Both the position numbers and the translations under genes were made by a program. DNA of 64,000 nucleotides. Origin: Smithella sp. (lineage in GTDB: Bacteria > Desulfobacterota > Syntrophia > Syntrophales > Smithellaceae). The notes below the pieces were generated by a model. That model saw nothing but the letters and a program-made list of their open reading frames with translations. It was not told the DNA's origin and did not search any database. Positions within the stretch are counted from its first letter, which is position 1. Every line of letters starts with the position of its first letter. The stretch lies in NCBI GenBank assembly GCA_017993615.1, contig JAGOMJ010000001.1:25425-89424 (forward strand), given 5' to 3'. Below, one piece after another: positions 26,936-47,233 of the stretch.

Positions 26936-27085
26936 TTAAGAATCGGTTGATGTTTTTTCTTTCTTTCTGTCCTCGACCGGACAGCCGGGTTTCATTCAGG
27001 TGGATACACCCAATTTAGGCAAGAGCCATCCCTGCAACAAAAACCATACCGCAACAATGACGGCCAATATCAAAAAATCATTCAT
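26936..27085 (-). CDS. Candidate 49-aa membrane-anchored selenopeptide (absent from the ORF track)
   Basis: MNDFLILAVIVAVWFLLQGWLLPKLGVST-U-MKPGCPVEDRKKEKTSTDS. In-frame TGA at 26996-26998. Starts 21 nt after the trxA stop. A SECIS-like hairpin follows the TGA, and a hairpin follows the stop codon. Confidence 0.45.
26969..26982 (-). promoter_or_regulatory. SECIS-like hairpin
   Basis: RNA GUCC-GGUCGA-GGAC. GGUC lies at +21..+24 counted from the U of UGA. Confidence 0.4.
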
Positions 27086-27106
27086 TTCCTTTGCCCCCTG
27101 GTGTTA

Positions 27107-27439
27107 TCAGTGGATATGCCGTTTAATCATATCGGCTAGTTTATCCTTCGAGGACAAACCGATCGACGTGTCCTTTACCGTTCCCCCTTTCATGACCAGC
27201 AGTGTCGGGATGCTTTTGATACCGAATTGACTCGCGGTTTGAGGATTGTCATCCACGTTAACCTTCACAATGTCTATCCGGTCGCCGTATTCTCCGGCCA
27301 GTTCCTCCAGAATCGGGCCGATCGCACGGCAAGGTCCGCACCACGGCGCCCAGAAATCCACTAAAACCAGCTTGTCATTTTTTAAAACGGTTTTTTCGAA
27401 ATCACCGTCACCGGCATGCTTGATGTCCTGCTTATTCAT
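27107..27439 (-). CDS. trxA: Thioredoxin
   Basis: 110 aa with WAPWCGPC active site. Confidence 0.93.
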   Translation of the reverse strand: MNKQDIKHAGDGDFEKTVLKNDKLVLVDFWAPWCGPCRAIGPILEELAGEYGDRIDIVKVNVDDNPQTASQFGIKSIPTLLVMKGGTVKDTSIGLSSKDKLADMIKRHIH

Positions 27440-27544
27440 TTGCTCCCCTCCCTTGATATAAAAGTATTTGATTTATCAATCCGCAATTGTTAAATATTCG
27501 TATATTCATAATCGCAAGCATATGTCCCGGTTTGTGGAATGTCA

Positions 27545-27558
27545 TTGATCTGAATCAA
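27545..27558. promoter_or_regulatory. FNR/CRP-family box TTGAT-CTGA-ATCAA
   Basis: Perfect match to TTGAT-N4-ATCAA (extended palindrome CATTGA-N6-TCAATG), 20 nt upstream of the Crp/Fnr regulator ATG. Confidence 0.55.
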
Positions 27559-27578
27559 TGTGGAGAAAAATATTTGCC

Positions 27579-28259
27579 ATGGAACTTCTTAAACAAATAC
27601 AGAACTTTGGGCTGTTTCAAGGCCTGTCGGCGGAGAACTTGAAACTCATGGCATCGCAGGCGTTGCATAAAAAATTCAAACAGGGTGATTTGCTGATCGG
27701 GGAGGAAGATCCCATCCGGGCGTTTTACGTGGTGACCGCCGGGCAGTTAAAGCTTTACAAAAGTTCATCCGAGGGCAGGGAACAGACGTTATCGCTTTTA
27801 AAACCGGGAGATCCTTTCGGTCTTTGTACAGCCTTTGCCACGGAAAGCTTTCCCGCCAATGCCATGGCTATTGAAAAAAGCGCAGTATTGATTATTCCGG
27901 GAGAATTGATGGAGAATGTCGCTAAAAAAGAACCGGTGCTGCTTCTCAACATCATTCAAATACTTTCCCAGCGCCTCAAGGAATCCATGACGCTGATCGA
28001 ATCGCTTTCGCTGAAGGAAATACCGGCAAGGCTGTCAACCTACATTCTTGACGCACTTTCAAGGACGTCAGAAGACAAGAGAAACAAACTGGAATTAACC
28101 ATATCCCACCGGGAATTATCCAAGATGCTTGGCGCAACGCCCGAGGCGCTTTCCCGTGCGTTCAAGAAAATGAGCAACGATAAAATTCTGAAGGTCGAGG
28201 GACGCGTCATTACCGTTTTGAACAGGGAAGAGATGAAAACGCTGGCCGAGGGCGATTAA
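27579..28259 (+). CDS. Crp/Fnr-family transcriptional regulator
   Basis: cNMP-binding-like beta-barrel plus C-terminal HTH (ISHRELSKMLGATPEALSRAFKKM). No N-terminal Cys cluster. Confidence 0.85.
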   Translation: MELLKQIQNFGLFQGLSAENLKLMASQALHKKFKQGDLLIGEEDPIRAFYVVTAGQLKLYKSSSEGREQTLSLLKPGDPFGLCTAFATESFPANAMAIEKSAVLIIPGELMENVAKKEPVLLLNIIQILSQRLKESMTLIESLSLKEIPARLSTYILDALSRTSEDKRNKLELTISHRELSKMLGATPEALSRAFKKMSNDKILKVEGRVITVLNREEMKTLAEGD

Positions 28260-28292
28260 GTTATTCCAGTGCTAAACATTGATGATCCGGGG

Positions 28293-29042
28293 TTATCTCA
28301 AATCCTCCAGAGCGATCGTACTGCCTGCGCCGAGACGAATGAAATGCTCTCCGTATTTGCGGGCGAAGAGCTCGCGGGCATTAGGACCGCTGCAGTGAGA
28401 GGCGGCCGCGTAACGGACGCCGAGTTCCCGGAACCGGGCGATGATTTTCAAAATGTCTTCGTCAGCATTGTCGAGCAAATGAAAACCTCCCATGACCAGG
28501 GCCAGTGCATCATCCGGTAAAATACGCTTCGCGGTTTCGGCAATATGCACGATGCCCGGATGCGCACATCCGGTAATCACGACGGTTCCCGCCTGCGTTT
28601 TCAGAAGGGCGCTCTGTTCCCGGATCAGGGCCTCCATGTCGCCGGTACTGTGCAGACCGGTGATCACTTCTCGTGCTTCATTTATGTCAATCACTTCTGC
28701 GCCGTAGCGCTTCATATCTTCTTTGAAGCGGGCGGAAAACGAATGAGGCAGACAAATCCGGAGATTTCGTTTTTCTTTCAGAATATAATAGATGCCTCCG
28801 GTATGATCCCAATGCTGGTGAGAGATCATCAGAAGATCAAGCGATGCCGGATCAATGCCCAGCTTTGCCATATTTGCCGCCAGGACAAGACCATCGCCGC
28901 CGGTATCAAAAAGGATGTTTTGCCCTTCATGCTGGATCAGACAGGAAAATCCCCACGAGCTCTCCAGATCATCCCGGCTTGAATAATTGTCACAGATCAC
29001 GGTGATGAAAGGATCTTTTACCGATGAGCGGACGTTTTTCAT
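28293..29042 (-). CDS. MBL-fold metallo-hydrolase (same subfamily as 47250-48200)
   Basis: SHQHWDHTGG, GCAHPGI, GGFHL and HCSG motifs. Start MKNVRS.. forms an ATGA overlap with the upstream gene. Confidence 0.75.
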   Translation of the reverse strand: MKNVRSSVKDPFITVICDNYSSRDDLESSWGFSCLIQHEGQNILFDTGGDGLVLAANMAKLGIDPASLDLLMISHQHWDHTGGIYYILKEKRNLRICLPHSFSARFKEDMKRYGAEVIDINEAREVITGLHSTGDMEALIREQSALLKTQAGTVVITGCAHPGIVHIAETAKRILPDDALALVMGGFHLLDNADEDILKIIARFRELGVRYAAASHCSGPNARELFARKYGEHFIRLGAGSTIALEDLR

Positions 29043-29890
29043 GACACGTTCTCCTTTCTTATAGAGTTTCCACCTGTAGAACTGCCAATATTTTTGATGT
29101 CGTCTAACATATTGCGCATGCCTTCTGTATCCGGAAGTGCCTCCTTGATGCGTTGGAGCAGGAGGCGATCCTCTGCCAGCTTTCGCGTGGGTGCGTAATT
29201 CATATCGTAAAACCACGATGCGAGCATCACTACACAATCTGTTACCGTACGCAAACGACTGACGGAAACCGTTCTGGTGTTCAATATCTCTTCCATGATG
29301 CCGGGGCTTATGTTCCGGTCCAGACGAATGTGGGGCAGCATATCCGGAAGCTCTCGAAAGCCGTTGCCCGCGATGGCTTTCAGGACCAGATCCATGATAT
29401 CGAGTTTATCAGCATCCCGGATCAATTGCAGCAGACAGTCAGCCTTAGCGGGAAAATGATCGGAGATATCTGAAACTTTCTTATTGTGACATTCTACGGC
29501 ACAAAGGAGGCAATTCCAATCGTCTGCGTCAAAATGCGTCCGCATTCCTTCGGTTTCGAGAATCCGGTATCCTTCCGTGCCGTGATCGATTGTTTCGGCG
29601 TCATGGAAAGATCCGTAACGGACGAACTGGGAAAAACGTCCGATATCGTGGATCAGTCCGCATCCTTCGGCCAAAAGAATTTCCTTCAGTGTCCTCTTCA
29701 GTTCCTGCGCTATCAGGCGAGCGTTTTCGGAGACTCGTAAACTATGCAGGTATTTCAGTTCCAGCGCGGCAGGCAAAGTACCCTGTTTGTCGCGATGGCG
29801 GTTTACATACCGCTCAAACCCTTCCGCAACAAACGCGCCGGGGTCGTTTTCGTCCGCCTTCAGGAGACTCAATGGGCCGGCCTCACTCAT
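29039..29890 (-). CDS. HD-domain phosphohydrolase
   Basis: HSLRV ... LIHDIGR (H..HD) motifs. Confidence 0.75.
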   Translation of the reverse strand: MSEAGPLSLLKADENDPGAFVAEGFERYVNRHRDKQGTLPAALELKYLHSLRVSENARLIAQELKRTLKEILLAEGCGLIHDIGRFSQFVRYGSFHDAETIDHGTEGYRILETEGMRTHFDADDWNCLLCAVECHNKKVSDISDHFPAKADCLLQLIRDADKLDIMDLVLKAIAGNGFRELPDMLPHIRLDRNISPGIMEEILNTRTVSVSRLRTVTDCVVMLASWFYDMNYAPTRKLAEDRLLLQRIKEALPDTEGMRNMLDDIKNIGSSTGGNSIRKENVS

Positions 29891-30315
29891 TTCTTCTTAC
29901 CTATGGCATAGTTGCGCAGGGCTTTATGAAACGTGTTGGCAGCAAGCAGCGCACAATGTTCCGACTCTTTGGGCATGCCGCCCAAATGTTCTAGAATGGA
30001 ACTCTGATTGATTCGAATGCATTCCCTCACAGAATTGCCCTTCGCCATGACGGTCGCTGCCGATCCGGCTGCATGGGACGTCATACATCCGTCGGTGGTA
30101 TAGGCAATATCCTCGATTTTGTCATTTCTTATCCTGAGAAACATCTCCATCGTATCCCCGCACGGTCCCGTTATTTTGGCGTAGCCGTCAGGTTTTGTCA
30201 GCGTTCCGCAGTGTCTCGGATTGTTTCCGTAATCGACAACTTTATCGGAAAGACCGCCTGTTATTTTCTTCATAAGATAATCAATCATTTCCTGTTTAAT
30301 TTGCTCTTCGTCCAC
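29887..30315 (-). CDS. NifU-N/IscU-like Fe-S scaffold protein
   Basis: GPCGDTM, DGCMTS and EHCALLA Cys motifs. Confidence 0.8.
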   Translation of the reverse strand: MDEEQIKQEMIDYLMKKITGGLSDKVVDYGNNPRHCGTLTKPDGYAKITGPCGDTMEMFLRIRNDKIEDIAYTTDGCMTSHAAGSAATVMAKGNSVRECIRINQSSILEHLGGMPKESEHCALLAANTFHKALRNYAIGKKK

Positions 30316-30380
30316 CCTGTTGCTCCTTGTTGCTCATTCAGACAGAATAAATAAAAAACTCGCGGCTTATATCTCGCGAT

Positions 30381-31665: not shown

Positions 31666-31716
31666 CGTTTTTTAGAAGACTTTAAATCAGAAAACATATC
31701 TTCCGGAGGTTTTGAA

Positions 31717-34634: not shown

Positions 34635-34825
34635 TGGTTTCTGCCCTTAAAGAAAAGAAAATTTTTCCAGAAAACTTAACATCTAATGTGCTTTCTGTCA
34701 AAGAGTACCTTGCTCAGACAGCCCGGACGAACTTCTTGACAAAACAACCGGTTTACCTTATCGTTTAATTGTCTTTCAGTGTTTTATTGATGTGATTGTC
34801 GCAGCAATTCAACAAGGAAAATGAT

Positions 34826-36091
34826 ATGGCCGATTCCGGCAAAAAGCGGTTCCTCCCACATATCAAATCTGCCTTTGAACGCGTCTTATCCGGTGGATGG
34901 ATTTATCTCTTGTTTGTCGGCCTGTTCGGTATTTTTCTTCTCATAGGAATTGGTGCCGGGATTCATGCGTTGTTTATCGCCGGCAGCCGTCATGCCTACG
35001 CGACATCACGGGAAATTCCCGTTGCCATTCTGATTGCCACGTATGTTTTTTTTGTTGTCGCTTCAACGGGGCTTTGTCTGGTGTCGTCACTGGGACATGT
35101 CTTCGGCGTGGAAAACTTCCTGCCCCTGGCGAAACGTTGTGTTTACCTGGCGATCATTACCATTCTTTCCGGATTCCTGGTGATCGGCCTGGAAATTGAA
35201 AATCCTTTCCGCATGGCGATATACAACGTTATTTCGCCCAACTTCTCTTCCAATATCTGGTGGATGGGAACCCTGTACGGGTTTGCCGTCGTTTTTCTGA
35301 CGATTGAATTCATTCTTCTGTTTAATGAAGCGCACCACCATAAAGCTGTCATTGCCGGTTTCCTCGGCGTCATTACGGAAGTCGCCGCCAACAGCAACCT
35401 GGGCGGTGTTTTCGCGATGATGCATGGGCGCCCTTACTGGTACGGCCCTTATTTCCCCGTTTATTTTATTTTATCCGCCCTTATTACGGGCTGCGCTTTT
35501 ATTCTGTTTTTCTTTTTTCTCGCCCACAAAGCGGTCAACAAAAAACCATTCATGGAATCGACGCAAACCGCTCTGAAAGCCGTATCGAAACTGACGCTGC
35601 TTTTGCTGGCCGTCATGATGATCTTCACCGCGTGGAAGGTTTTGACGACCTCCGTTGGCAGTCCTGCCGCCGCCGCCGCGTTGAGCGTGTTAACTGAAGG
35701 ACCCTATTCATTCAACTTCTGGACCATTGAAATCCTTGTCGGAATGGTCATTCCTTTTGTTTTAATTCTGGCATCAAGAGGCAGGAATCTGACGGTCATG
35801 TTCATCGCCGCCGTCATGATGATTTTCAGCCTTTTCTTCACCCGTCTGGATATGGTGGTTGTCGGACAGATTGTCCCGCAATATTTTGAAGTGGGTGTTG
35901 TGGAATATTCCAAATTGCATACCTATTCTCCGAGCATTCACGAAATCCTTGTGGTGCTGGGAGGGATAAGTTTCTGCCTGCTGGCATTTTTGCTGGGTGA
36001 AAAAGTATTTTCCGGTTTCGCAGATTCACCGCAGACCGACATCATGAAAGAAAAAACAACGGACGTTGCCGGAGTGGAAGAACTGACATGA
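34826..36091 (+). CDS. NrfD/PsrC-family polytopic quinol-interacting membrane subunit
   Basis: About 10 TM segments. 4-nt overlap with the downstream NrfC-like gene. ATG at 34826 is preferred to the TTG at 34796. Confidence 0.8.
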   Translation: MADSGKKRFLPHIKSAFERVLSGGWIYLLFVGLFGIFLLIGIGAGIHALFIAGSRHAYATSREIPVAILIATYVFFVVASTGLCLVSSLGHVFGVENFLPLAKRCVYLAIITILSGFLVIGLEIENPFRMAIYNVISPNFSSNIWWMGTLYGFAVVFLTIEFILLFNEAHHHKAVIAGFLGVITEVAANSNLGGVFAMMHGRPYWYGPYFPVYFILSALITGCAFILFFFFLAHKAVNKKPFMESTQTALKAVSKLTLLLLAVMMIFTAWKVLTTSVGSPAAAAALSVLTEGPYSFNFWTIEILVGMVIPFVLILASRGRNLTVMFIAAVMMIFSLFFTRLDMVVVGQIVPQYFEVGVVEYSKLHTYSPSIHEILVVLGGISFCLLAFLLGEKVFSGFADSPQTDIMKEKTTDVAGVEELT

Positions 36092-36825
36092 CGGATAAGG
36101 CGAGCCATAAAAATATTCCGGAATCTCCGCTTGATGCTGAACGGCGGGCATTTCTGAAAATCGGTCTGAAAATTACCGGCGTGCTCGCCGGCGGCTCAAT
36201 ATTGTCTTTAGTCTCCAACATCAACAAGGCTTATTCTCTTGATCTTTTTCGGGAGAAATACCCTTATAAACCTCATTACGCGATGGTGTTAAGACAGGAC
36301 CGCTGCATTGATTGCGAAAAATGCATGAAAGCCTGTATTGAAACCAATCATGTTCCGGATTACGGCTGGCGGACAAAGATTTTAAAACGCGACCTTTCGT
36401 CGGCGCTTGATCAGAAATGGGAATTTATTCCCATCCTCTGCAATCAATGCAACAATCCTCCGTGCGTGCGCACCTGCCCGACGACGGCGACGTATAAGGA
36501 TAAGACCAACGGCATCGTGCAGATGAACAACAAAAAATGCATCGGGTGCAAATCCTGTATTATGGCCTGCCCCTACGATGCCCGCTATTATAATGAAGAA
36601 AAAGGTGCCATTGATAAATGCGATTTCTGTTTTGAGTCCAGGCTGTCCAAAGGCATTAATACCCCGGCCTGCGTTGAAGCCTGTCCCTCGGATGTCCGTA
36701 TTTTCGGAGATTTGTCGGATCCGTCCAGCAGAGTGTTTCAACTTGTTCACCAGTTGCAAAGACCTGTGTGGGTGCTGCGGCAGGAGATCGGTGCGAAACC
36801 GAATATTTTTTATATGAAGGGTTGA
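36088..36825 (+). CDS. NrfC/HybA-type 4x[4Fe-4S] ferredoxin subunit with Tat signal
   Basis: Twin-arginine ERRAFLKIG. Four Cys clusters: CIDCEKCMKAC, CNQCNNPPCVRTC, CIGCKSCIMAC, CDFC...CVEAC. Confidence 0.88.
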   Translation: MTDKASHKNIPESPLDAERRAFLKIGLKITGVLAGGSILSLVSNINKAYSLDLFREKYPYKPHYAMVLRQDRCIDCEKCMKACIETNHVPDYGWRTKILKRDLSSALDQKWEFIPILCNQCNNPPCVRTCPTTATYKDKTNGIVQMNNKKCIGCKSCIMACPYDARYYNEEKGAIDKCDFCFESRLSKGINTPACVEACPSDVRIFGDLSDPSSRVFQLVHQLQRPVWVLRQEIGAKPNIFYMKG

Positions 36826-36835
36826 TGATTCAGCA

Positions 36836-38647
36836 ATGAAAAGAAATCTTGTTCTTATAATTCTTCTCGCTCTTTTCTGCATCGCCAATGTCGGTTCTAC
36901 CGGAAAAAGCAGTTTTTCCGACGGCGGTGGCATTCTGTATACGCAGCCGGTGAAATCCGTTATTTTCCGCCATCAGCATCATGTGGATGTAAAAAAAATA
37001 AGTTGTGAGAAATGCCACAGCGGCTTGTTTGAAATGCAGGCTTTGCTTGCCCAGGAGAAAAAGGATTTTATTATGGATTCTCTCTACAAGGGCAGGTACT
37101 GCGGCGCGTGTCATAACGGCAAAGACGCTTTTGCATCCGATAAACAGTGCGCCAGATGCCATGTCCGCATCAGCGAAAAAGATGTGGGGCACGTGAAAGG
37201 TAAAGCCAAGCCATACAAAGCGCCTGTTTACAGTACGGTGGCCACTTTGGGAAAAGACCAGCGGAAGGTCCCGTTCAACCACGAAAAGCATGCGTCGCTG
37301 AATTGCATGGATTGTCATTCGAAACTTTTTCAAATCAGAAAAGGATCAACCAAGATTGCCCTGGAAACGCATCAGTCGCAAAAATATTGCTTTAACTGTC
37401 ACAACGGGAAAAAAGAGTTTTCCTGGAACAATTGTACAAAATGCCATCAGAACTGGAAGGATATTAAACCGTACGGTATTCTGACGGCAAGAGCCGACAG
37501 AGGAAGCTGTGTTGCCTGCCACACCAATCCGGATGAAATGAAATCGCTCGTCAAGCCGCCCGAAATAGGCGGCGAGGCCGAGGGGTGAGCTGGCGCTCCT
37601 CCCCCGGTCCGGGCGGAAGAATACTACAAAGGTTATCTGGTCGATAAAGGAATGATCGGCAAGGAGTTCCATCTTTCGATGGATTGCATTGCCTGTCATC
37701 AAGGCAACAAGCTCGCAAAAACAAAGGAGAAAGCTCATCAAGGACGTATCGCCAGACCGTCCGACAATCTTAAAACCTGCGGCATCTGTCATATAACAGC
37801 CGGACAAAATTACGCCAAGGCCCTTCATTATACGAGCCTGGGCCAGCGCGAAGGCGTCAAACACCGGTTTTCTGCGGCAGAATTGAAAACGTTTGATCAG
37901 AAAGTTTTTGAAAAATCATGCCGATCCTGTCACGCTTCCTGCGGAAGCTGCCACGTCAAATCGCCGCCTGTCGGCGGCATCACCACCGGCCTTCTCCAGG
38001 GCCATAAATTTGTGAAGAAAAACGAAGGCAAAACCTGTGCTTCATGTCACGGTGGAAGAGTATATCCCGAATTTACCGGTGAATACGGCGGCACCCCTGA
38101 TGTCCACTACCAGAAGGGCATGATGTGCAATGACTGCCACAACAAACAGGAAATGCACGGCGACGGCAAATTATATAAATCAAAAAATGATGTCAAAGAC
38201 CGCCCGAAATGCCTGTCCTGCCATCAGGATAAAGGCAATCAGGTCGCGCACACCATTCATAAGGATAAAGTCAGCTGTCAGGGCTGCCATTCTTCCGGCC
38301 AATATCGCCAGTGTTATAGCTGTCATGCCGTGCATGGGTCAAAGGCCGAGCCCGGCTTTATCCTGGGGCTGAATCCGCGTGACCGCAAGACCTTGACAAC
38401 CCTCAGGGTCATACCTACTATAAGAAGTACATTTGAGCCTAACGGAATAAAAATGGAGAATTTTGATGCTCTGCCCAATTACTGGAATTCGCCGGTGCAC
38501 AACATTAAAAAGCGAACAAACAGGACACGCTCCTGCGATGCATGCCATGTGAATAAAGAAGGTTTCCTGAAACCTGAAGGGCTGATTAAAGACGGATCTA
38601 AAGAAAATGAGAAACTAATTTATGACATTAAACCAATAAGCAAATAA
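36836..38647 (+). CDS. Candidate selenocysteine-containing 17-haem c-type cytochrome (7-haem N-part including two c7-like trihaem repeats, U251, 10-haem C-part)
   Basis: Track ORFs 36836-37588 and 37652-38647 share one frame and are separated only by the TGA at 37586-37588. There is one Sec signal peptide, at the N-terminus only. 17 CxxCH motifs. A SECIS-like hairpin lies downstream of the TGA. Confidence 0.6.
37599..37616 (+). promoter_or_regulatory. SECIS-like GC-rich hairpin
   Basis: CCC-CGGUCC-GGG with extra flanking pairs. GGUC lies at +21..+24 from the U of UGA, the same spacing as in the Prx gene. Confidence 0.4.
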
Positions 38648-38663: not shown

Positions 38664-39590
38664 ATGAAAAGAATGAGGTTTTTGAAAGTGTTGTTGGTAT
38701 CCCTGTTGATTTTACTGCCGGCAGCCGTGCTGGCGCAGGGACTCAGCCCTATTGTTTCGACAGATGATTTAGCCAAAATTGTAAAGGATCCCAACGTCAT
38801 TGTCATTGATATCCGCAAGGTTGAAGATTATAAAGCGGGGCATATTCCCGGCGCGATAGGGGTGTTTTATAATAATTGGGCACCGGGCATGGGCGGCTTA
38901 AAAAATGAAATGCCGGCAGATGATGATTTAATGGACCTTCTTACCGATAACGGCATTCAACCCGACTCAACGGTCGTCGTTTACGGCACTACAGGAACTC
39001 CGCCTGATCGTGTGGATGTGACCCGCGTGGCCTGGGCTTTGAAATACGCAGGCGTCCAGAAGGTATCTGTACTGAGCGGCGGATTTGAGAAATGGGCGGT
39101 GCGCGAGAAAAAAGAAGTTTCTACAGAGATTACCAAGCCCAAGACCAAAGATTACAAAGGTAAAATCAATAAAGCCATTCTGGTTAACAAGGATTACGTG
39201 AAAAATCACGTCGGAAAAGCGATGATCGTTGACGCACGGGAACCGGCATTCTTTAAAGGCGAACAGAAACTTCCTTTCGTGGCCAAAGCCGGTCGAGTCA
39301 AGAATTCGGTCAATCTGCCCACCATTCAGGTTTTCGACAAATATCCCCCCGGCGAGCATATGGAGCCCTGCTGCTGGACATATAAAGATGTCGCCACGCT
39401 CAAAAACATTGCTTCAGGTGTCGTTGGCAGTGACATCGACAAGGAAATCATTGTCTATTGCGACACCGGGAAAGTTGCCAGTGCCTGGTGGTTCATTTTA
39501 AGTGATGTGATGGGTTTCAAAAATGTGAAAATTTATGACGGTTCCATGGAAGAATGGATGAATGATGCAAGCGCTCCGACGGAACCGTAA
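38664..39590 (+). CDS. Exported tandem-rhodanese sulfurtransferase
   Basis: Signal peptide LLPAAVLAQG. Two rhodanese domains. Active-site loop VYCDTGKVAS. Confidence 0.85.
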   Translation: MKRMRFLKVLLVSLLILLPAAVLAQGLSPIVSTDDLAKIVKDPNVIVIDIRKVEDYKAGHIPGAIGVFYNNWAPGMGGLKNEMPADDDLMDLLTDNGIQPDSTVVVYGTTGTPPDRVDVTRVAWALKYAGVQKVSVLSGGFEKWAVREKKEVSTEITKPKTKDYKGKINKAILVNKDYVKNHVGKAMIVDAREPAFFKGEQKLPFVAKAGRVKNSVNLPTIQVFDKYPPGEHMEPCCWTYKDVATLKNIASGVVGSDIDKEIIVYCDTGKVASAWWFILSDVMGFKNVKIYDGSMEEWMNDASAPTEP

Positions 39591-39668: not shown

Positions 39669-40592
39669 CTATTTAGGCGTGACGTTGGCGTCGGCGTTTT
39701 TTGTAATCGGTGCCTGAGGATCCTGCATCCATTCCTGCATGGCGCCATCGTATAGACGGACGTTTTTATAGCCGAGGACTTCCACCAGAATATAAGACCA
39801 GATCGGGCAGCACTGACCGATGTCGCAATAGGTTATAATTTCTTTTTCCTTATCCCTGCCGATAGCGGCTTCGGAAATCGCCGCGAGTTCTTCCGTGGTT
39901 TTAAATGTTTTGTCAGGATTAAAGGCGCAGGAAGTCGGCATGTTAAAAGCTCCCGGGATTCGTCCCATCATGGGAATACAATCCATCTTTTTCTCGCCGG
40001 TAAAGAACTCTCGTTCTCTCACATCCAGCATAATAGCCTTGCCCAGCCGTTCTTTAACGTAATCTTTGTCGGCAAATCTCGCTCTTGAGTAGAGGCCTTT
40101 GAATGGTTTTGCTTTTGCGTGCATGATCTCCTGCGAAAGCGGTTTCTTTTCAGTAATCCATTTATTCATCCCGCCGTTAAGAACGGCTACATTTTTTATT
40201 CCTGCGTATTGCAGGGTGCAGGCGACACGGGCGCTTTGATAACTCAGCCGCGGCGTATCCATGCAACCGGTGACGACAATCCGCGAGTCAAACCCGATTC
40301 CGAAGTAGCCTATGGTATCATCCAGGTCATCCGTTTCGGGGATCTCCGTAAAAAGACCGTCTTTCTGGTATGCCCATGATCTGTAAAACGCGTTTAGCGC
40401 GCCGGGAATGTGTCCCTCTCGGTAATCCTCAACTCGGCGAACATCCAGGATAATCAATTTCGGATTCTTCAAATTTGCCAAAAGCCAGTCGGTGGATACA
40501 ATCGGCTCGATGTCACGGGTTTGACCGGCTATCGGCAATAAAAGGATAAAAAGAAGGATCGTAAGGAGCTTGGACAAAGCATGATTTTTCAT
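39669..40592 (-). CDS. Exported tandem-rhodanese sulfurtransferase (paralogue)
   Basis: Start MKNHALSK with AAGGAG 8 nt upstream. Signal peptide present. Active-site loop TYCDIGQCCP. Confidence 0.85.
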   Translation of the reverse strand: MKNHALSKLLTILLFILLLPIAGQTRDIEPIVSTDWLLANLKNPKLIILDVRRVEDYREGHIPGALNAFYRSWAYQKDGLFTEIPETDDLDDTIGYFGIGFDSRIVVTGCMDTPRLSYQSARVACTLQYAGIKNVAVLNGGMNKWITEKKPLSQEIMHAKAKPFKGLYSRARFADKDYVKERLGKAIMLDVREREFFTGEKKMDCIPMMGRIPGAFNMPTSCAFNPDKTFKTTEELAAISEAAIGRDKEKEIITYCDIGQCCPIWSYILVEVLGYKNVRLYDGAMQEWMQDPQAPITKNADANVTPK

Positions 40593-40725
40593 ATGGCAAT
40601 CTCCTTTGAATGTTGTATTACACATCTTAAAACGGATGTATACATAGTATACCACTAATTCTTTATTGAGACAGCCGAATATTTCAGACCGCAGAATACA
40701 AGCCCTATTTCATACTATTTTTATC

Positions 40726-41271
40726 TTACCGAATATGACGGTCTATTTCCCCCATCAGCGTCTGCGTCTGATCGGGCAACAGCGCGAATCCCATGTCATT
40801 CCTGTAAATGATGTTCATTTTTTTATCGACAATCACATACACGCGTTTGGAAAGGGGCAAAAGCCAGTGGTCGGCGTCGTAGAGCTTGGCGATTTTGCCT
40901 TTTTCATCCACCAGCAGAGTCATGTTTTTCAGGCTGTGCTTGGCTATAAACTTGCGGTGCGATTCGGCCGAATCCCGCGACAGGCCGAGAATTTTGATTT
41001 TTTTGGCTTTGTATTTTTTAATATTTTGTTGAAACTCAACAAACTGGCGGATTCAAAGCTTGGTGTCGTCTTTGGGATAGAAAGCCAGTACCACGGCGCG
41101 ATGATTTTTGACAGCATTGCTGAGTTTCCATATGTTGCCCTTTTGATCGGACAATGTAAAATCAGGGGCTACCTGGCCGGAAACCGGGGAGGCGTTTTTT
41201 GCCCCTGTTGAAGCACAGGCTGACAATATAAAGAACACCAGCACAAAAAAAACGAATTTTGTTATTCGCAT
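40726..41271 (-). CDS. Candidate Sec-containing BCP-like peroxiredoxin lipoprotein (U73 at the peroxidatic position)
   Basis: Track ORFs 41053-41328 and 40726-40923 are in one frame, joined by the TGA at 41053-41055: AFYPKDDTKL-U-IRQFVEF...ILGLSRDS. Lipobox ILSAC. GGAGGG RBS before MRITKF. Confidence 0.65.
41025..41043 (-). promoter_or_regulatory. SECIS-like hairpin
   Basis: RNA UUUGUUGA-GUU-UCAACAAA: perfect 8-bp stem starting at +13 from the U of UGA, with GU in the loop. Confidence 0.45.
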
Positions 41272-41339: not shown

Positions 41340-41951
41340 TTAATCGTCAAACGCCATTTTGGTTTTCCAAACTTCCCAGACCTTGCCTACCAGATCGGGG
41401 CCGGGTTTGAGCGTCGGCTTGCCGGGTTTCCAACCGGAGGGCGTGGCTTCGGCGCCTTTGGTTTTGCGCACGTGTTGGAAGGCCTGAATTTGACGGATGC
41501 TTTCCATGACGTTGCGTCCGACCGGCGGCGTCAACACTTCAAAGCCCTGAATGATGCCATCGGGGTCGATGATGAACCGGCCGCGGGCTTCCACGCCGGC
41601 ATCCTGAAGGTAAACGCCAAAGATGTCTCCGACCTTGCCGCCGCCGTCGGAGAGCATGGGGAAGGGGATGCCGCCTTTGACCATTTTGGAAAGTTCATGA
41701 TCATCCCACATTTTGTGGACAAAGACGCTGTCCACACTCATGGATAAAACTTCAACGCCGAGTTTTTTGAATTCGGGATATTTCTCGCCGACCGACGAGA
41801 TTTCGGTTGCTCAGACGAAGGTGAAGTCGCCCGGATAAAAACACAGGACAACCCATCTCCCCAGATAATCGGAGAGCTTCAGATTGATGAATTTCCCCTT
41901 GTGATACGCGGGCGCCGTGAAGTCCGGCGCTTTTTTCCCTACAGTGACCAT
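41340..41951 (-). CDS. Sec-containing AhpC/Prx1-type peroxiredoxin (U47 replaces the peroxidatic Cys)
   Basis: Track ORFs 41811-42065 and 41340-41741 are in one frame, joined by the TGA at 41811-41813: [23 protein letters not shown] lies before [11 protein letters not shown]. Confidence 0.8.
41783..41800 (-). promoter_or_regulatory. SECIS-like hairpin
   Basis: RNA UCUCGUC-GGUC-GGCGAGA: 7-bp stem and GGUC tetraloop at +21..+24, resembling the fdhF apical loop. Confidence 0.6.
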
Positions 41952-42085
41952 GCTTTTGACCTCCTTGACAGGTGTTGGTTGAGACGTTTCTTTCTTCGCA
42001 TCCGGTTTTTCGCCGACCGGTCCGCCGGTGGGTCTGGCACAGCCGGCCTTGATTTCTTCAGCCATAGATGATTCCCTCCTTTGTT

Positions 42086-42400
42086 TTATTTTTTTGATTT
42101 CTTCATTTTCGCGATTTCTTCCTCCACTTCCTCAGCGCCTTCCGCATAGAATTTTCCTTCATCGGGGGCCAGTTCATGAAGCAATCTTAAAAACTCTCCG
42201 GCGTGAACGCGTTCCTCGTCGGCAATGTCCCCGAGGACCTCGATGGCCAGCTTGTTGTCGGTTGATTCCGCGAGCTGCATATAAAGTTGGATGGCTTCAT
42301 ATTCTGCCGCCACCATAAAGCGAATGGCTCTGATCAGTTCTTCTTTGGTCAGTTTCCTGTCCTTCTTCAACCCTGAAAAAGGTGTTCCAAACTCCGGCAT
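42086..42400 (-). CDS. Small ferritin-like/rubrerythrin-family protein (EncFtn-like sequence, no encapsulin nearby)
   Basis: [10 protein letters not shown] ... [11 protein letters not shown] di-iron-type ExxH pattern. 20 nt upstream of the Prx gene. Confidence 0.65.
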
Positions 42401-42463: not shown

Positions 42464-42484
42464 TGACATCATTTTGTGATGTCA
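42464..42484. promoter_or_regulatory. Inverted repeat TGACATCA-N5-TGATGTCA (candidate operator)
   Basis: Perfect 8-bp arms, 64-84 nt upstream of the ferritin-like ATG. No U-tract, so it is unlikely to be a terminator. Confidence 0.4.
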
Positions 42485-42509
42485 ATTTCTGCCCTTATTT
42501 TTTTGATAT

Positions 42510-44210
42510 TTACTTCTCCCTCGGGAACGGCCAAGCCATAATGCCGCCTTCCATCACTTTGACGTTTTTCCAGCCGTTGCCTTCCAGTGCCAGCGCCGCC
42601 TCATAACCGCGCAGTGAAATCTTGCAGTATAAGATGATTTCGCGATTTTTATCCTCCGGCAGCTCCTTGAGGCGCTTACGGATCGCGCCGAGCGGTATCA
42701 ACGTCTCACCGATGCCTAAACGCATCTCTTCGAATTCCTCCGGTCCGCGTGTATCAATCAGGAATGGTTTCTCTCCGGCCCGTATTTTATCATAAACCTC
42801 TTTACAACTGATACCTTTCATTCTGCCTTTCATTTTATTCTGCATGATGTGCGCCGTGGCGATAAAATGATCAATGGCCAGAGAGAAGGGCGGCGCGTAG
42901 GGAAGATCGGCGTTAATCAGGTCTTCCACGGTCATTTTCCCCTGAATGGCCATGGCCCACTGGGCAATTTGCTTGGCGACGTTTCCCGGACCGATGCATT
43001 GTGCGCCGAGGATACGGCCGGTTTTTTGCTCCGCCACCAGTTTAGTGACCAGAAGCTTGCCTTCCATAAAGCCCGGTTTGTCGGGACTGGCGTTGATGAC
43101 CGTTATGATGTCGGAATAGCCCAGGCGTTTGGCCATTGTTTCCGAAAGGCCGGTGGAGCCCGCCCCGTAATCGAACACTTTGCAGATGCCGGTTTGAATC
43201 GTTCCCGGGAAAGTGACGCTGTTGCCGGAAGCGGCGTTTTCTCCCGCTATTCTTCCCTGGAGATTGGCCAGATCGCCGTAAGGCGCGTGGACTTTTTTGC
43301 CGGTGATGCGGTTGAGGGTTTCCACGCAGTCGCCCACGGCGTAAATGTCCGGGTCGGAGGTCTGCATGTATTCATTGACTTCAACGCCGCCAAGCTCGCC
43401 GATTTTCAACCCGGCTTCTTTGGCCAGTGTGACGTTGGGACGGACACCGATGGCTATAACGGCCAGCTCGCAGGGAAGCTCCGTTCCGTTTTGCAGTTTC
43501 ACCGCTGTGAGTTTTCCGTTTTCACCCAGGAAAGCGGCTATGCCGTTTTCGGTGATGATGTTGGCGCCTTTGCTCCGCACATGGTTTTCCACCAGCTTGG
43601 CCAGTTCCCAGTCCAAAAACGTCAGCAGTTGAGGAAGCAGTTCAATGACGGTGATTTCAATACCCGCCAGTTGCAGCGCTTCGCAGGTTTCGATACCGAT
43701 GAGTCCGCCGCCGATGACCACGGCCTTTTTGATTTTGCCTTCATCGCGGACGTTACGCAGAAAATCGGCGTCCTTCATGGATTGTAATGTGGTAATGCCC
43801 TGGAGATCTGTGCCCGGAACCGGCGGCATTCGGGGAACGGCGCCGGTGGCGATAACGAGTTTGTCATACGTCAGGGTGCCGGTTTCTCCGGAAACCGTAT
43901 TTTTGAAGGAAACGGAACGGTTTTTCGTGTCGATGTTAGTGACTTCGGTGTTGACCTTCGCTTCGATATCTTTGGCGTTGAGGTAAAACATCGGATTGCG
44001 CACGACGCCCGCGGGCGTGCAAAGTAGCGCGTTGCGGTCGTTAAAAAAACCTCCGACGTAATACGGGTAGCCGCAGGACGCCATGGAAAGGTCGGCTTCC
44101 TTCTGGATAATGATCACTTCCGCGTCGTTGTCAATGCGCCGGGCTTTCGCCGCTGCTTTGGGACCGGCAGCCGAACCTCCGATAACAATGATTCGTTTTC
44201 TCTGAGCCAT
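42510..44210 (-). CDS. CoA-disulfide reductase / NADH-dependent persulfide reductase-like flavoprotein with C-terminal rhodanese domain
   Basis: GGSAAG FAD site, redox Cys in SMASCGYPYY, second Rossmann motif VVIGGGLIG, C-terminal rhodanese loop LYCKISLRG. Confidence 0.85.
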   Translation of the reverse strand: MAQRKRIIVIGGSAAGPKAAAKARRIDNDAEVIIIQKEADLSMASCGYPYYVGGFFNDRNALLCTPAGVVRNPMFYLNAKDIEAKVNTEVTNIDTKNRSVSFKNTVSGETGTLTYDKLVIATGAVPRMPPVPGTDLQGITTLQSMKDADFLRNVRDEGKIKKAVVIGGGLIGIETCEALQLAGIEITVIELLPQLLTFLDWELAKLVENHVRSKGANIITENGIAAFLGENGKLTAVKLQNGTELPCELAVIAIGVRPNVTLAKEAGLKIGELGGVEVNEYMQTSDPDIYAVGDCVETLNRITGKKVHAPYGDLANLQGRIAGENAASGNSVTFPGTIQTGICKVFDYGAGSTGLSETMAKRLGYSDIITVINASPDKPGFMEGKLLVTKLVAEQKTGRILGAQCIGPGNVAKQIAQWAMAIQGKMTVEDLINADLPYAPPFSLAIDHFIATAHIMQNKMKGRMKGISCKEVYDKIRAGEKPFLIDTRGPEEFEEMRLGIGETLIPLGAIRKRLKELPEDKNREIILYCKISLRGYEAALALEGNGWKNVKVMEGGIMAWPFPREK

Positions 44211-44312
44211 AGTTTTATCCTCCGATTTTTAAAAGTGACCTGAACATAAAAGGTCGCTTCCATAAATTTGATTCTCTCAGTGAAAAAATAGCAATTATCG
44301 GCAGCCGTTGCA

Positions 44313-44326
44313 TTGACTTAAATCAA
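44313..44326. promoter_or_regulatory. FNR/CRP-family box TTGAC-TTAA-ATCAA
   Basis: Extended palindrome GCATTGA-N6-TCAATGC, about 100 nt upstream of the 42510-44210 gene. Half-sites match the box at 27545. Confidence 0.5.
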
Positions 44327-44459
44327 TGCGGATAATTATTTTCAGAGTCCGTATATTTTGAGCCGGCCGGCATCAGACCTTATGGAACATACATGGCAAC
44401 GACCTCATCCGCAGCATAAATTACCCCGCCGGCGATTAGCTGTGATTTAATAATAACTT

Positions 44460-45653
44460 TTACGATGATGCGGGCGATATTTCAGCATCAACGTGCCTCA
44501 ACGGAAGCGTGGGATGTTTTATGAAAGCCCTGATGAAAAGGGGAATCCTTCGGGATAACGGTTTGGTGATCGTATCCCCGTAGGCTTTCAGCAACTCATC
44601 CGGCATGTAGTGAAGCTTTATTCCCGCAATTCTGTTGGTGAAGGAGAGCGTGATAAAACATCCGGGGCAGTTGACGGCCATATCTTTCATTCCGGTTTCC
44701 TTCACTTCTTTGTATTTTTTCCACTGTTCCTTGAAGAGACTTTTCGGAAGATTAAGGGTCCGGAGAACGCTCACGGCCCCGCAGGAAAGGTTGCACTCTC
44801 CATGATGGGGGAGTTCCACTATATCGGCGCCCGCTGATTTGTAAACGGCGCGAAGGTCGCGGGCAAAGCCGTCACCCAGTTCGCTGACATAACATGATTC
44901 ATGGAGGGTCGTCTTTAGTTTCAACGGTTGTTTTACTGTGATCTTGCCGGATTCTCTTTTTTCATTCAGCCATTCATACAGGGAAATCAATTTGAATGGC
45001 AATTCCCTGCCGTATACATTTTTCAGTATATTGGATAGATAGTTGTAGCAGGATCCGCAGTAGCAAACCATTCTCTCGATATTCAATTTCTCAAAAGCTT
45101 TCAGGGTTTTTTCAATCGTTTCGGTGTAGGCTTTCCATGAACCGAGACGGTATGCAAGCTCACCACAACAGAGATCCGGCGGCCCGAATTTCGGCAGTTC
45201 CTGTAAAACAGCGGAGTTTTCAATATCGAAACAACTTATTCTGCCGATGCATCCGACCCACAGAATTTCTTTTGAAGGCGGTGGAATTTCCGACCATTTT
45301 TTCAATATGGATTGTTCCTCCCTGGAAAGCATGGCATAAATATCCTTCCACATTGACATTTTCATGCCGTTGAAGAGATAGGGGTAGACAGCGGATATCT
45401 TTCCTTTCTTCTTCCTGTTCTCCATGAACTTCTCCAGAATAAATTCATGAAGTCTTAACCCCTCGGGGCAATAATTATTGCAACTGAAGCAGAACGTGCA
45501 TTCCCTGAAAATTTTTTCCGAGTAACCGGTTTTCAATAATCCGGTCATTTCAGCAACGGCCTCGGGCTTGTCCATGTGCATCACGGGACATTGGACAAGA
45601 CATTCACCGCACGTCGTACATTTATTCCAATCCGATAATTTGGCATATGACAT
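44460..45653 (-). CDS. HdrD/GlcF-like Fe-S protein (2x[4Fe-4S] + CCG domains)
   Basis: CTTCGECLVQCP and CTFCFSCNNYCP clusters, followed by Cys-rich CCG-type repeats (DLCCGE, CPGC). Confidence 0.75.
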   Translation of the reverse strand: MSYAKLSDWNKCTTCGECLVQCPVMHMDKPEAVAEMTGLLKTGYSEKIFRECTFCFSCNNYCPEGLRLHEFILEKFMENRKKKGKISAVYPYLFNGMKMSMWKDIYAMLSREEQSILKKWSEIPPPSKEILWVGCIGRISCFDIENSAVLQELPKFGPPDLCCGELAYRLGSWKAYTETIEKTLKAFEKLNIERMVCYCGSCYNYLSNILKNVYGRELPFKLISLYEWLNEKRESGKITVKQPLKLKTTLHESCYVSELGDGFARDLRAVYKSAGADIVELPHHGECNLSCGAVSVLRTLNLPKSLFKEQWKKYKEVKETGMKDMAVNCPGCFITLSFTNRIAGIKLHYMPDELLKAYGDTITKPLSRRIPLFIRAFIKHPTLPLRHVDAEISPASS

Positions 45654-45672
45654 AATACATGTTCCCCCTTTT

Positions 45673-46407
45673 CTATCTGAATTGACGAATAACCCATTCA
45701 AGTTTCTGGATACGCGCCGCAGACCATGCAAAAAATTTTTGCCAGAGCCCGGCGCTTTTTATCTCATGCGTCGAATGCGTGTTTCGATCTTCTTTGTGTG
45801 AGTGTAATTCTTTTAATAACGGCAGTAAATGCAGATTATTGCTCCGTTCATGGATAATGTGCCATACGCAATTTATTTGCGGATCGAGCGCGCATTTCAA
45901 GTTTGATTCTGAATAGGATTTGCAGGGGCCGTATTTGCTTTTTGCGGGACATTCGCTCAACGGACAGATTCCAGCGGTGCAGGTTAGCACGCAATGTCCG
46001 CAGCTTCTGCAGAGGCTATGTGCAATAACCGGATCGCTGCTGGAAACTGCGGCGCTTCCCACGGAATCCAGCACATTGATTACAGGCAAATCCGGCCGAC
46101 AGCTATTCGCTGATTTTATTCCCGCCGCGCAACTCAAAACGATCAATGCATCACACTTTTCGAGGGCCTTTTTGTTGGCCCTCAACGCCTGACGCATTAT
46201 TTCTTCGGGACAAGCGGCAAGAATGACTTTGTCCAGTTTGATCTGTTTGTGATTTTTCAGCAGATGCGCTTTCAGAACTTCCACGCCGGTCTTGCCGCCC
46301 GTGTAGGAAAGATTGGCGCATGTTCCACAACTCAGAATGCCGAATGTTTTATAATCTTTTAGTATGAGATTAATTTCCGGCTCCGGTTTCCAAATGGTTT
46401 TATTCAT
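45673..46407 (-). CDS. MTHFR_C-like (MetV-type) Cys-rich protein
   Basis: CRSCGHCVLTCTAGICPLSECPAKSKYGPC resembles the methylene-THF reductase C-terminal domain. Confidence 0.55.
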   Translation of the reverse strand: MNKTIWKPEPEINLILKDYKTFGILSCGTCANLSYTGGKTGVEVLKAHLLKNHKQIKLDKVILAACPEEIMRQALRANKKALEKCDALIVLSCAAGIKSANSCRPDLPVINVLDSVGSAAVSSSDPVIAHSLCRSCGHCVLTCTAGICPLSECPAKSKYGPCKSYSESNLKCALDPQINCVWHIIHERSNNLHLLPLLKELHSHKEDRNTHSTHEIKSAGLWQKFFAWSAARIQKLEWVIRQFR

Positions 46408-46462
46408 TGTTTACCGTATCCTGACTGTGAAAAGCGTATTGTATATCGGGGCTTGGGATCTG

Positions 46463-46945
46463 CTATTCTTTTAAATGGTCCGGCATCAGGGCTTCCGGCA
46501 CCTGAATGGCAACGACTTCGCCGGTGGCGCATATCTGGCCGCCGGCAATCAGCCTCGATTCGATAACGACTTTGCGCCTTTTGATCTCCTTGACTTTCCC
46601 CCGTATTTCTATCGGTCCGCCAAGCGGTGTGGGCAAAAGATAGTTTACGTGCAAAGAGGCGGTCAGAAAACGAATCGGCGGCAGGGTATCCATCTCGCGG
46701 TTTTCAGAGCAGTATTTGGCCGCCGCCGCTGTGCCAGTGGAATGGCAATCGATCAGCGACGCAATCAGACCGCCGTAAGCCATTCCGGGAATAGCCATGT
46801 AGCGGGGATCCGGTTGATAAACACAGACGGATTCTTCTCCGTCCCAGTAGCTTTTGATTTGCAGACCGTGTTCGTTGAGGCGACCGCAGCCGTAACAGTG
46901 GCTTAAATCGTCGGGATAGTAGTCCTGAAACGCTTTTTGCTTCAT
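46463..46945 (-). CDS. PaaI/hotdog-fold thioesterase
   Basis: CYGCG zinc-type N-terminus plus hotdog core (YGGLIASLIDCH). Confidence 0.7.
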   Translation of the reverse strand: MKQKAFQDYYPDDLSHCYGCGRLNEHGLQIKSYWDGEESVCVYQPDPRYMAIPGMAYGGLIASLIDCHSTGTAAAAKYCSENREMDTLPPIRFLTASLHVNYLLPTPLGGPIEIRGKVKEIKRRKVVIESRLIAGGQICATGEVVAIQVPEALMPDHLKE

Positions 46946-46978
46946 AAAAACCCCTTTTTTATACAAGAAATTTTATAT

Positions 46979-47233
46979 TTACAATCGAGAGGACAGAAAA
47001 GCATGCATTTTTTGCGCGTCTGTTGCAATATCAACATGCACGTGTTCATTGTCAAAGATGACATTGGTTGAACTTCTGAAATTATACGGCAATGCCTCGA
47101 CGGCATCGATTGTGTAAATTTTTACATCCAGAATGGTCTCAAATTTTGTTTTCATCTCTTCAGCTACACCTATAGCCTTCTTGCAGCTTATTCAGCCCGG
47201 ATTTCCGCTATGAAAAACCAGTAATGTCTTCAT
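46979..47233 (-). CDS. Candidate 84-aa thioredoxin-fold selenoprotein with UxxC motif (absent from the ORF track)
   Basis: MKTLLVFHSGNPG-U-ISCKKAIGVAEEMKTKF...; TGA at 47192-47194. Fills an otherwise empty 304-nt gap in a tightly packed operon. Layout resembles small Thioredoxin_3 proteins (GxGCxxC near the N-terminus). Confidence 0.55.
47163..47176 (-). promoter_or_regulatory. SECIS-like hairpin
   Basis: RNA GCUA-UAGGUG-UAGC with GGU in the loop (+25..+27). An outer AGCU/AGCU helix is also possible. Confidence 0.35.

Follow-up and report, generated by a model that had tools for sequence, protein, structure and literature searches.

Within a 64-kb stretch of genomic DNA from an uncultured Smithella sp. 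of anaerobic digesters (contig JAGOMJ010000001.1; the whole stretch is called the window below), five open reading frames (ORFs) spread over 20.3 kb (positions 26936-47233) are each broken by a single in-frame TGA. We are confident that these five are selenoprotein genes of the organism; for the two less obvious ones, encoding a multiheme cytochrome c and a small membrane peptide beside trxA, roles are proposed from gene context and analogy. The in-frame UGA, together with a downstream hairpin resembling a bacterial selenocysteine insertion sequence (SECIS), most likely encodes selenocysteine (Sec) in all five. Judged by their sequences, three of the products (PrxU, a BCP-type peroxiredoxin and TsoX) are members of described selenoprotein families; the cytochrome and the peptide appear to represent uncatalogued, conserved families in which Sec is obligate.

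Five in-frame UGA codons and their hairpins

An all-frame scan of the 64 kb for TGAs joining two open frames returned the same five sites and no others of comparable quality. The genes and hairpins are listed below; in the hairpin entries, numbering starts at the U of UGA, and the structures come from reading and folding 60 nt downstream of each TGA.

36836..38647, + strand: predicted periplasmic multiheme cytochrome c selenoprotein, 603 amino acids (aa), 17 CXXCH, Sec251 in GEAEG-U-AGAPPPV; assigned from TGA conservation
37600..37617, + strand (UGA 37586..37588): putative cytochrome SECIS, GC-rich bulged hairpin spanning +12..35, stem +15..20/+27..32 with register variants, loop GGUC(C) with GGUC at +21..24, -9.5 kcal/mol; assigned from pairing in 70 sequences
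26936..27085, - strand: predicted single-pass membrane selenoprotein, 49 aa, U-x4-C, directly downstream of trxA; assigned from TGA conservation
26967..26984, - strand (UGA 26996..26998): putative peptide SECIS, 6-bp stem +15..20/+27..32, loop GGUCGA at +21..26 with GGUC at +21..24, -10.3 kcal/mol
41340..42065, - strand: PrxU, Sec peroxiredoxin, 241 aa, Sec85 in PxxxTxxU; NF040737 match
41783..41800, - strand (UGA 41811..41813): putative prxU SECIS, 7-bp stem +14..20/+25..31, loop GGUC at +21..24, -9.5 kcal/mol
40726..41271, - strand: BCP-type peroxiredoxin selenoprotein, lipoprotein, 181 aa from the M at 41271; AhpC-TSA match
41025..41043, - strand (UGA 41053..41055): putative BCP-type SECIS, 8-bp A/U-rich stem +13..20/+24..31, loop GUU at +21..23, -5.9 kcal/mol
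46979..47233, - strand: TsoX, thioredoxin-fold selenoprotein, 84 aa, Sec14 in HSGNPG-U-ISC (UxxC); NF045809 match
47162..47177, - strand (UGA 47192..47194): putative tsoX SECIS, 6-bp stem (two G-U pairs) +18..23/+28..33, loop AGGU at +24..27 with GGU at +25..27, -5.0 kcal/mol, the weakest of the five

Every stem and loop position that a preliminary description of this DNA had given for the five genes (tsoX then being called Trx-like) was reproduced by reading and folding. The apical loop begins 17 nt after the UGA in four genes and 20 nt after it in tsoX, stems are of 6-8 bp (bulged in the cytochrome), loops are of 3-6 nt, and GGUC stands at +21..24 in prxU, the cytochrome and the trxA-adjacent peptide.

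This geometry is that of the published bacterial SECIS rather than a local peculiarity, and the recoding mechanism is therefore not new. The consensus model of Zhang and Gladyshev, as summarised in passages of a recent review, has an apical loop of 3-9 nt, an upper stem of 4-16 bp, a UGA-loop spacing of 16-37 nt, a G in loop position 1 or 2 (or both), most often with G or U after it, and a minimum free energy of -7.5 kcal/mol or lower (PMC13188914). All five hairpins lie within these limits for loop size, stem and spacing and carry the loop G; prxU, the cytochrome and the peptide also pass the energy limit, and the BCP-type gene and tsoX fall short of it. As in the fdhF/fdnG-type SECIS of E. 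coli, the hairpin lies directly 3' of the Sec-UGA within the coding sequence, one difference being a bulged U17 in the fdhF type, for which no equivalent is evident in the five window hairpins. The fdhF loop is likewise GGUC, its G23 and U24 being essential, and is more distant from the UGA by one nucleotide. By the established bacterial pathway, a hairpin starting about 12-18 nt after the UGA would act as SECIS during translation; its apical loop (G, and G or U, at +21..26) would bind SelB carrying Sec-tRNA(Sec), and the SelB complex would place Sec-tRNA(Sec) on the UGA in the A site, so that selenocysteine is inserted and translation does not terminate.

The GGUC loops have a coding side as well. 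At the three sites concerned (UGA 41813 on the - strand, 37586 on the + strand and 26998 on the - strand) the GUC of the loop is the Val codon at Sec+7, and the codon before it ends in G. Across the peptide family, the Sec+7 residue (V, G or A) varies along with the loop sequence. It appears that the SECIS shapes the protein sequence.

Public annotation was compared through a matching contig (DAOSYB010000001.1) of the metagenome-assembled genome (MAG) GCA_035380885.1; many digester metagenome contigs match too. In the NCBI annotation of this MAG the TGA is read through in prxU (241 aa) and the BCP-type gene (181 aa). Of tsoX only the 58 aa that follow the UGA are called, the cytochrome appears as two proteins of 250 and 322 aa, and no gene is annotated after trxA, which leaves three of the five genes truncated or missing. 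At species level, the genomes nearest to the window belong to uncultured Smithella (cytochrome amino-acid identity up to 89%), and the GC content of the window is 44-52%. Transcription is shown for four of the five genes: contigs from digester metatranscriptomes cross the UGA of prxU, the BCP-type gene, the cytochrome and the peptide without any base change. The cytochrome UGA is spanned unchanged in four such assemblies, and one RNA-derived contig holds the 3' end of trxA together with the whole peptide ORF.

Conservation of the UGA in the cytochrome

Read through its TGA, the cytochrome has a signal peptide, two c7-type triheme domains and then an 11-heme core, the TGA following the first core heme. 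A scan of one genome per species gave 80 Smithella/Syntrophaceae loci; TGA occupies the aligned position in 79 of them and CGA in the remaining one, and a Cys codon (TGY) occurs there in none of the 80 genes. Two closed Smithellaceae chromosomes, OY820932.1 and OY970063.1, also have this cytochrome, and OY820932.1 has the peptide gene described below as well. The site is flanked by a conserved GEG-U-AGAPPPV[KR].E motif. Most of the best 120 database homologues begin just after the TGA site, with start codons that differ from one to the next, and a few longer ones read through GGEGEG-x-AGAPPPV. True non-Sec variants carry Y, A, S or R at the site and read the motif as one polypeptide. The 22 codons from the TGA to the first ATG are conserved as protein. 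Beyond the TGA lie 10 invariant CXXCH motifs, with neither a signal peptide nor a conserved start codon, and this part would therefore reach the periplasm only as a fusion with what precedes it. The core has no invariant Cys outside its CXXCH motifs.

Two database proteins show W at the Sec position. For one of them (P0010; L097:51-1313) the DNA codon is TGA and translation table 11 does not give the listed protein, which points to a table-4 gene call; P0093 likewise shows W in its protein entry. W-labelled entries of this kind can conceal Sec codons or pass for Trp variants. A structure prediction for a core homologue (AlphaFold2 on P0017, 43 sequences) was too poor to support a fold search, with a predicted local distance difference test score of 49.6 and a predicted template modelling score of 0.34.

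The cytochrome hairpin was examined in 70 distinct sequences, where 91.7% of cells pair, versus 35-67% when the partner strand is slid. Compensatory changes were seen at 18:29 (G-C to U-A) and 19:28 (C-G to G-C), and the covariation score exceeds that of all 500 shuffles, a modest signal; a set of 33 sequences showed no significant covariation in either register. G22 and U23 are invariant in the 70 sequences, and T15 and G30, both at third codon positions, nearly so.

A small membrane peptide downstream of trxA

The peptide ORF lies directly downstream of a thioredoxin gene:

27107..27439, - strand: trxA, thioredoxin with WCGPC; Pfam Thioredoxin

Its product, MNDFLILAVIVAVWFLLQGWLLPKLGVST-U-MKPGCPVEDRKKEKTSTDS, is laid out as MNDF, a transmembrane (TM) segment, and then QGWLLPKLGVST-U-MKPGCPVEDRKKEK. 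A homologue follows trxA in a diverged Smithella (L082), where the TGA is kept amid synonymous changes on both sides. To look further, a degenerate DNA pattern was used that allowed TGA, TGC or TGT at the Sec position and left out the window's own allele. It recovered 11 metagenome loci, all 11 with TGA and none with the Cys codons that the pattern allowed; counting all DNA examples, 13 of 13 have TGA. Outside what the pattern constrained, FLQ[GA] before W, [VI]ST before U and an Asp at +9 are conserved. In the 13 examples the start and the TM segment are conserved, and K-P-x-C-P-x-x-D after the TGA is kept in frame with third-position variation. The hairpin stem 16-20/27-31 is kept in 11 family members, with G21 and G22 invariant.

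At the protein level the family is visible almost wholly as fragments. A single-sequence protein search with the peptide found its own 29-aa fragment only, and a profile was needed to go beyond it; the profile search gave at least 41 protein clusters matching residues 1-29 only, most of them exactly 29 aa and seven longer. Five of the seven longer clusters were retrieved and have N-terminal extensions, and 12 of 12 retrieved sequences end in LG[IV][SP]T. None of the 41 clusters is named (all are hypothetical proteins) and none is a Cys form. Two family members searched against NCBIfam gave no match at E <= 10, and the window peptide matched no Pfam model at E <= 0.01.

In six of the 13 examples the peptide gene follows trxA, and the other seven are not beside trxA. 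At three of five non-trxA loci examined (L088:117-1699, L089:20-1140 and L096:56-1785) the peptide follows an HdrD-like CCG Fe-S protein and a C_GCAxxG_C_C protein, the latter a redox-active family that, according to passages of the review cited above, has selenoprotein forms (PMC13188914). In the window, the product of trxA is the likely redox partner of the peptide, and the two genes are probably co-transcribed. By the positive-inside rule the peptide would lie Nout-Cin, with the K/R-rich tail and U-x4-C at the cytoplasmic face of the membrane, and U-x4-C is probably cycled by the thioredoxin encoded upstream. An intrinsic terminator was also considered for the hairpin near trxA and was rejected: the run that follows is A-rich, not U-rich.

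Two eukaryotic proteins, SELENOK and SELENOS, are likewise small and cross the membrane once, and their Sec lies in a short tail in the cytosol. They offer an analogy only, with no sequence relationship; the bacterial peptide, unlike them, has its Sec 7 residues after the TM segment, a U-x4-C arrangement and a predicted SECIS within the ORF.

Members of described selenoprotein families

PrxU matches NCBIfam NF040737 over its full length (416 bits, cut-off 270). Its Sec occupies the peroxidatic site of PxxxTxxU (P-GDF-T-FV-U), and it is an ordinary member of that family with nothing notable about it; lacking a signal peptide, it should be cytoplasmic. PrxU was reportedly first described in Eubacterium acidaminophilum. 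Directly upstream of prxU lies an EncB-family encapsulin ferritin-like cargo gene (42086..42400, - strand; NF058679, 96.6 bits, cut-off 90). The BCP-type protein matches Pfam AhpC-TSA (PF00578) with 102 bits (cut-off 26) and has a lipoprotein signal ending ILSAC. Its Sec, in FYPKDDTKL-U-IRQ, occupies the peroxidatic PxxxTxxU position (P-KDD-T-KL-U), and orthologues at three loci of other Smithella genomes (L006, L009, L016) keep the TGA and an identical hairpin amid flanking codons that differ.

TsoX matches NCBIfam NF045809 with 126 bits (cut-off 52) and has the HSGNPxU motif and length that the family requires. This HSGNPxU-motif selenoprotein is among the prokaryotic families listed in the passages of the review (PMC13188914). 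TsoA, TsoB, TsoC and TsoY were not found adjoining tsoX in the window, where its neighbours encode a metallo-beta-lactamase-fold protein, a 4HBT thioesterase and an HdrD-like CCG protein.

Chance occurrence and stop codon usage

The preliminary description had argued that an identical tetranucleotide at an identical distance in three genes is hard to explain by chance. Taken over the whole window, bare TGA-N17-GGTC is not enriched (10 occurrences versus 6.8 expected; 22 of 100 shuffles reach 10), and it was therefore not used alone as evidence. Its frequency per TGA is about 0.4% (10/2478), and its presence at three of five sites that are supported independently by protein evidence has P ~7e-7. 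The coincidence is partly a coding effect, since +22..24 is a Val codon after a codon ending in G in all three genes. We also applied a looser rule (six or more pairs, with a 3-6 nt loop that starts at +20..25 and has GU beginning at loop position 1 or 2), which 92 of the 2478 window TGAs satisfy (3.7%), versus four of the five candidates. The preliminary description had named, as a finding that would count against it, a similar frequency of the pattern after ordinary TGA stops genome-wide. Within the window, the looser rule applies to one of the 22 long ORFs ending in TGA, namely the cytochrome itself, which favours recoding.

TGA terminates 22 of the 71 long ORFs of the window, including those of the NtrY-like kinase (113..2332), dnaJ, purC, fmt, trxA and rsfS, which bears out the earlier view that this is recoding and not an alternative genetic code. 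The earlier contention that the five calls support one another holds, with the cross-species conservation of the TGA now the stronger support for the cytochrome and the peptide. A comparison of Sec and Cys orthologues was also proposed at that stage; for the cytochrome and the peptide, the TGA is kept in relatives and no Cys orthologues were seen. Five such genes in 20.3 kb is, as had been noted, a high local density, far above the average of the richest bacterial selenoproteomes, which have about 40 genes per genome according to the part of the literature consulted (PMC12013277).

When TGAs joining open frames and gene-ending TGAs with short extensions were scanned, no further convincing selenoprotein gene was found in the window. 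One ORF (20115..20639, + strand) encodes a 174-aa membrane protein ending ENSTNC-TGA (TGA at 20637) with a 32-codon in-frame extension; having no SECIS-like hairpin, this TGA was treated as an ordinary stop. Searched against Rfam, the window as a whole had no match at gathering thresholds, and matches at E <= 10 over 26.8-47.4 kb were no better than chance; no SECIS family of Rfam matched the five hairpins. The window was also searched for selA-, selB- and selD-type domains and for tRNAs; none was found, in agreement with the earlier observation that no selA, selB, selC or selD lies here.

Gene context of the cytochrome

The cytochrome gene is flanked on its own strand by the following genes:

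34796..36091, + strand: NrfD-like membrane quinol subunit; Pfam NrfD
36088..36825, + strand: NrfC/DsrO-like 4Fe-4S subunit, directly upstream of the cytochrome; Pfam Fer4
38664..39590, + strand: periplasmic tandem rhodanese with signal peptide, active-site CDTGK, directly 3' of the cytochrome

For the upstream pair, NCBIfam matches to NrfC, TtrB and DsrO are below the cut-offs of those models. A rhodanese gene lies 3' of the cytochrome core at about 70 of the 80 loci, and the order NrfD-NrfC-cytochrome-rhodanese is found at 16, the window included. At eight loci (L022, L038, L042, L043, L058, L063, L066, L077) a two-domain c7 cytochrome stands separately after NrfD/NrfC, and the 11-heme Sec core is alone with the rhodanese. 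The presence of c7 domains and core as one gene in the window lineage (16 loci) and as two genes elsewhere is a fusion or a split.

Convergent to the first rhodanese, between the cytochrome operon and the peroxiredoxins, lies a second periplasmic tandem rhodanese (39669..40655, - strand; active site CDIGQCC), and both carry signal peptides; at L006-L010 the orthologue of the second is upstream of the operon instead. Further along (42510..44210, - strand) a 566-aa CoA-disulfide reductase-like flavoprotein with a C-terminal rhodanese (TIGR03385, 365 bits, below the cut-off of 579) continues the theme of thiols and sulfane sulfur.

Other features of the window

Several small Nitro_FeMo-Co (NifX/NifB-like) proteins and three CbiA/ParA-type ATPases with ferredoxin domains (MrpORP-like, NF041136 partial) are encoded at 48221..58400 (- strand), together with a NifU_N protein, a radical SAM protein, a methyltransferase, TrmO and a sigma-54 activator (57012..58382). 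This cluster resembles the Desulfovibrio 'orange protein' (ORP) cluster. In one metagenome strain (ENA contig k119_342978; L001:4909-7336) feoB, feoA and fur separate the NifU-like from the HD-domain genes; these three are missing in the window (at about 29890) and in two other assemblies, which indicates a strain-level insertion or deletion.

Discussion

The relation of the Smithella cytochrome to MccSep/ExtKL (GSU2937-2936) of Geobacter sulfurreducens is of particular interest. MccSep, a pentaheme cytochrome c selenoprotein characterised in 2026 as the polysulfide reductase of sulfur respiration, is the sole characterised multiheme selenoenzyme, and changing its U to C abolishes activity (PMC13510729). 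Both proteins are periplasmic multiheme cytochromes c with a single Sec between a Gly and a Pro-rich stretch (DG-U-PTP in MccSep, EG-U-AGAPPP here), both are split into two ORFs by public annotation, and both are encoded near a periplasmic rhodanese-like protein (ExtH in the case of MccSep). The Sec of MccSep cannot be replaced by Cys, and no Cys variant of the Smithella family was seen. Beyond this the two differ. MccSep has 5 hemes, with Sec in a C-terminal Ig-like domain, whereas the Smithella protein has 17 (11 in the core), with Sec between core hemes 1 and 2; MccSep has Cys-type relatives and a conserved heme-ligating Cys, and the Smithella core lacks any invariant non-heme Cys. The cytochrome has no match at E <= 10 to the ExtKL model NF040886, to the GSU2204 family NF041027 or to the octaheme tetrathionate reductase model TIGR04315, and none at E <= 1 to multiheme selenoproteins among PDB sequences. 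With no such match and a different layout of hemes and Sec, it is like MccSep in outline and not a member of its family.

The surrounding genes suggest how the protein might work. PsrABC and Sud of Wolinella succinogenes form a system in which NrfD-type quinol and 4Fe-4S subunits feed a periplasmic catalytic subunit, with a rhodanese-like sulfur carrier. The catalytic subunit of PsrABC is a molybdopterin protein, whereas in the window its place would be taken by the predicted Sec multiheme cytochrome. By analogy with the unrelated MccSep we infer that the cytochrome is the catalytic subunit of a quinol-dependent sulfane-sulfur reductase, acting on polysulfide or persulfide and possibly on selenite, with Sec251 as the nucleophile.

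Several points weigh against reading all five genes as selenoprotein genes with these roles. Cys-containing homologues, by which selenoproteins are usually recognised, were seen for neither the cytochrome nor the peptide. The BCP-type and tsoX hairpins are weaker than the consensus energy limit. The peptide hairpin shows no compensatory changes or covariation, and those of the cytochrome are few (3 of 420 cells); moreover, the non-Sec cytochrome variants retain much of the hairpin sequence, which there codes for PPPV[KR]AEE, so that conservation of the hairpin is partly a coding effect. No RNA-derived contig was seen for tsoX in the four runs examined, although absence of contigs is not evidence of absence. 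No Sec machinery was found in the window, and the complete selA/B/C/D apparatus is reported for a composite Smithella genome rather than for this one. Support for the five genes is at the level of DNA and, for four of them, of RNA, and not of protein (75Se labelling, mass spectrometry), and the functions proposed for the cytochrome and the peptide come from their gene context and from analogy.

Could the UGAs be read as cysteine instead? A tRNA(Sec)-like tRNA(Cys) with a UCA anticodon (selC*) might do so, constitutively or at low selenium, using the same hairpins. Genes for such tRNAs have been reported in the composite Smithella genome and other deltaproteobacteria, one of the tRNAs decoded Sec-UGA as Cys in E. 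coli, and Syntrophobacterales and Desulfobacterales have a second selB downstream of selC* (PMC5389517). We regard this as improbable for the five genes. All selC* genomes, the composite Smithella genome among them, have complete selA/B/C/D (PMC5389517), so that Sec insertion is available; a Cys of equal function would predict TGY codons, which are seen in none of the 80 cytochrome genes or 11 peptide genes, and in MccSep the same replacement destroys activity (PMC13510729). The Sec apparatus of the composite genome supports selenocysteine insertion and leaves room for occasional insertion of Cys.

It is less probable still that the cytochrome is two genes (250 and 331 aa) and that what looks like the peptide gene is a spurious ORF covering a terminator or attenuator hairpin at the 3' end of trxA. 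This would agree with the public annotation, which splits the one and does not call the other, with the lack of Cys homologues, and with the fact that hairpins just past stops can be terminators. It would leave unexplained the conservation of 22 codons between the TGA and the ATG, the differing starts that gene callers choose among homologues, a second part with 10 heme-attachment motifs and no export signal, and the TGA in 79 of 80 species together with four non-Sec variants that read through the motif as a single polypeptide. For the peptide, the run after the hairpin is A-rich, and the ORF, start, TM segment and K-P-x-C-P-x-x-D are kept in 13 examples, seven of them away from trxA. We give hardly any credence to an altered code (TGA as Trp or Gly), or to the TGAs being sequencing errors or pseudogene mutations. 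The W in some public calls of cytochrome homologues (P0010, P0093) might suggest the former, but the W of P0010 is a TGA attributable to a table-4 call, and use of TGA as a stop in the window, in 22 of 71 long ORFs with housekeeping genes among them, contradicts it; as to errors or pseudogenes, independent assemblies, 79 species genomes and RNA-derived contigs all show these TGAs. Selenocysteine insertion thus remains the reading that we prefer for all five genes.

The passages of the review that we consulted list 119 prokaryotic selenoprotein families, including Prx (TxxU), TsoX, ExtKL, the GSU2204 family and the octaheme tetrathionate reductase family (PMC13188914); neither these passages nor those of the deep-Sep paper mention a match to the Smithella cytochrome or peptide. 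On balance, we lean towards the view that the two are founders of families of their own: a rhodanese-linked Sec cytochrome with an undecaheme core, serving as a terminal sulfane-sulfur or selenite reductase of syntrophic Smithellaceae/Syntrophaceae, and a membrane-anchored U-x4-C selenopeptide of about 50 aa whose partner would be thioredoxin or the HdrD-like/C_GCAxxG_C_C pair. The lack of Cys homologues in both would explain why searches based on Sec/Cys pairs, and annotation pipelines, missed them, and selenoprotein finders that rely on such pairs will continue to miss both families.

The window illustrates how much selenoprotein content is still missed by public annotation in syntrophic Deltaproteobacteria. 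The peptide, for which no Cys version was found, would rank among the smallest bacterial selenoproteins. A second Sec cytochrome, architecturally unrelated to the first and present in at least 79 species genomes, suggests that sulfur chemistry combining Sec and heme arose more than once. It also suggests that the alkane- and propionate-degrading syntrophs of digesters have an unrecognised sulfur- or selenium-linked respiratory option.

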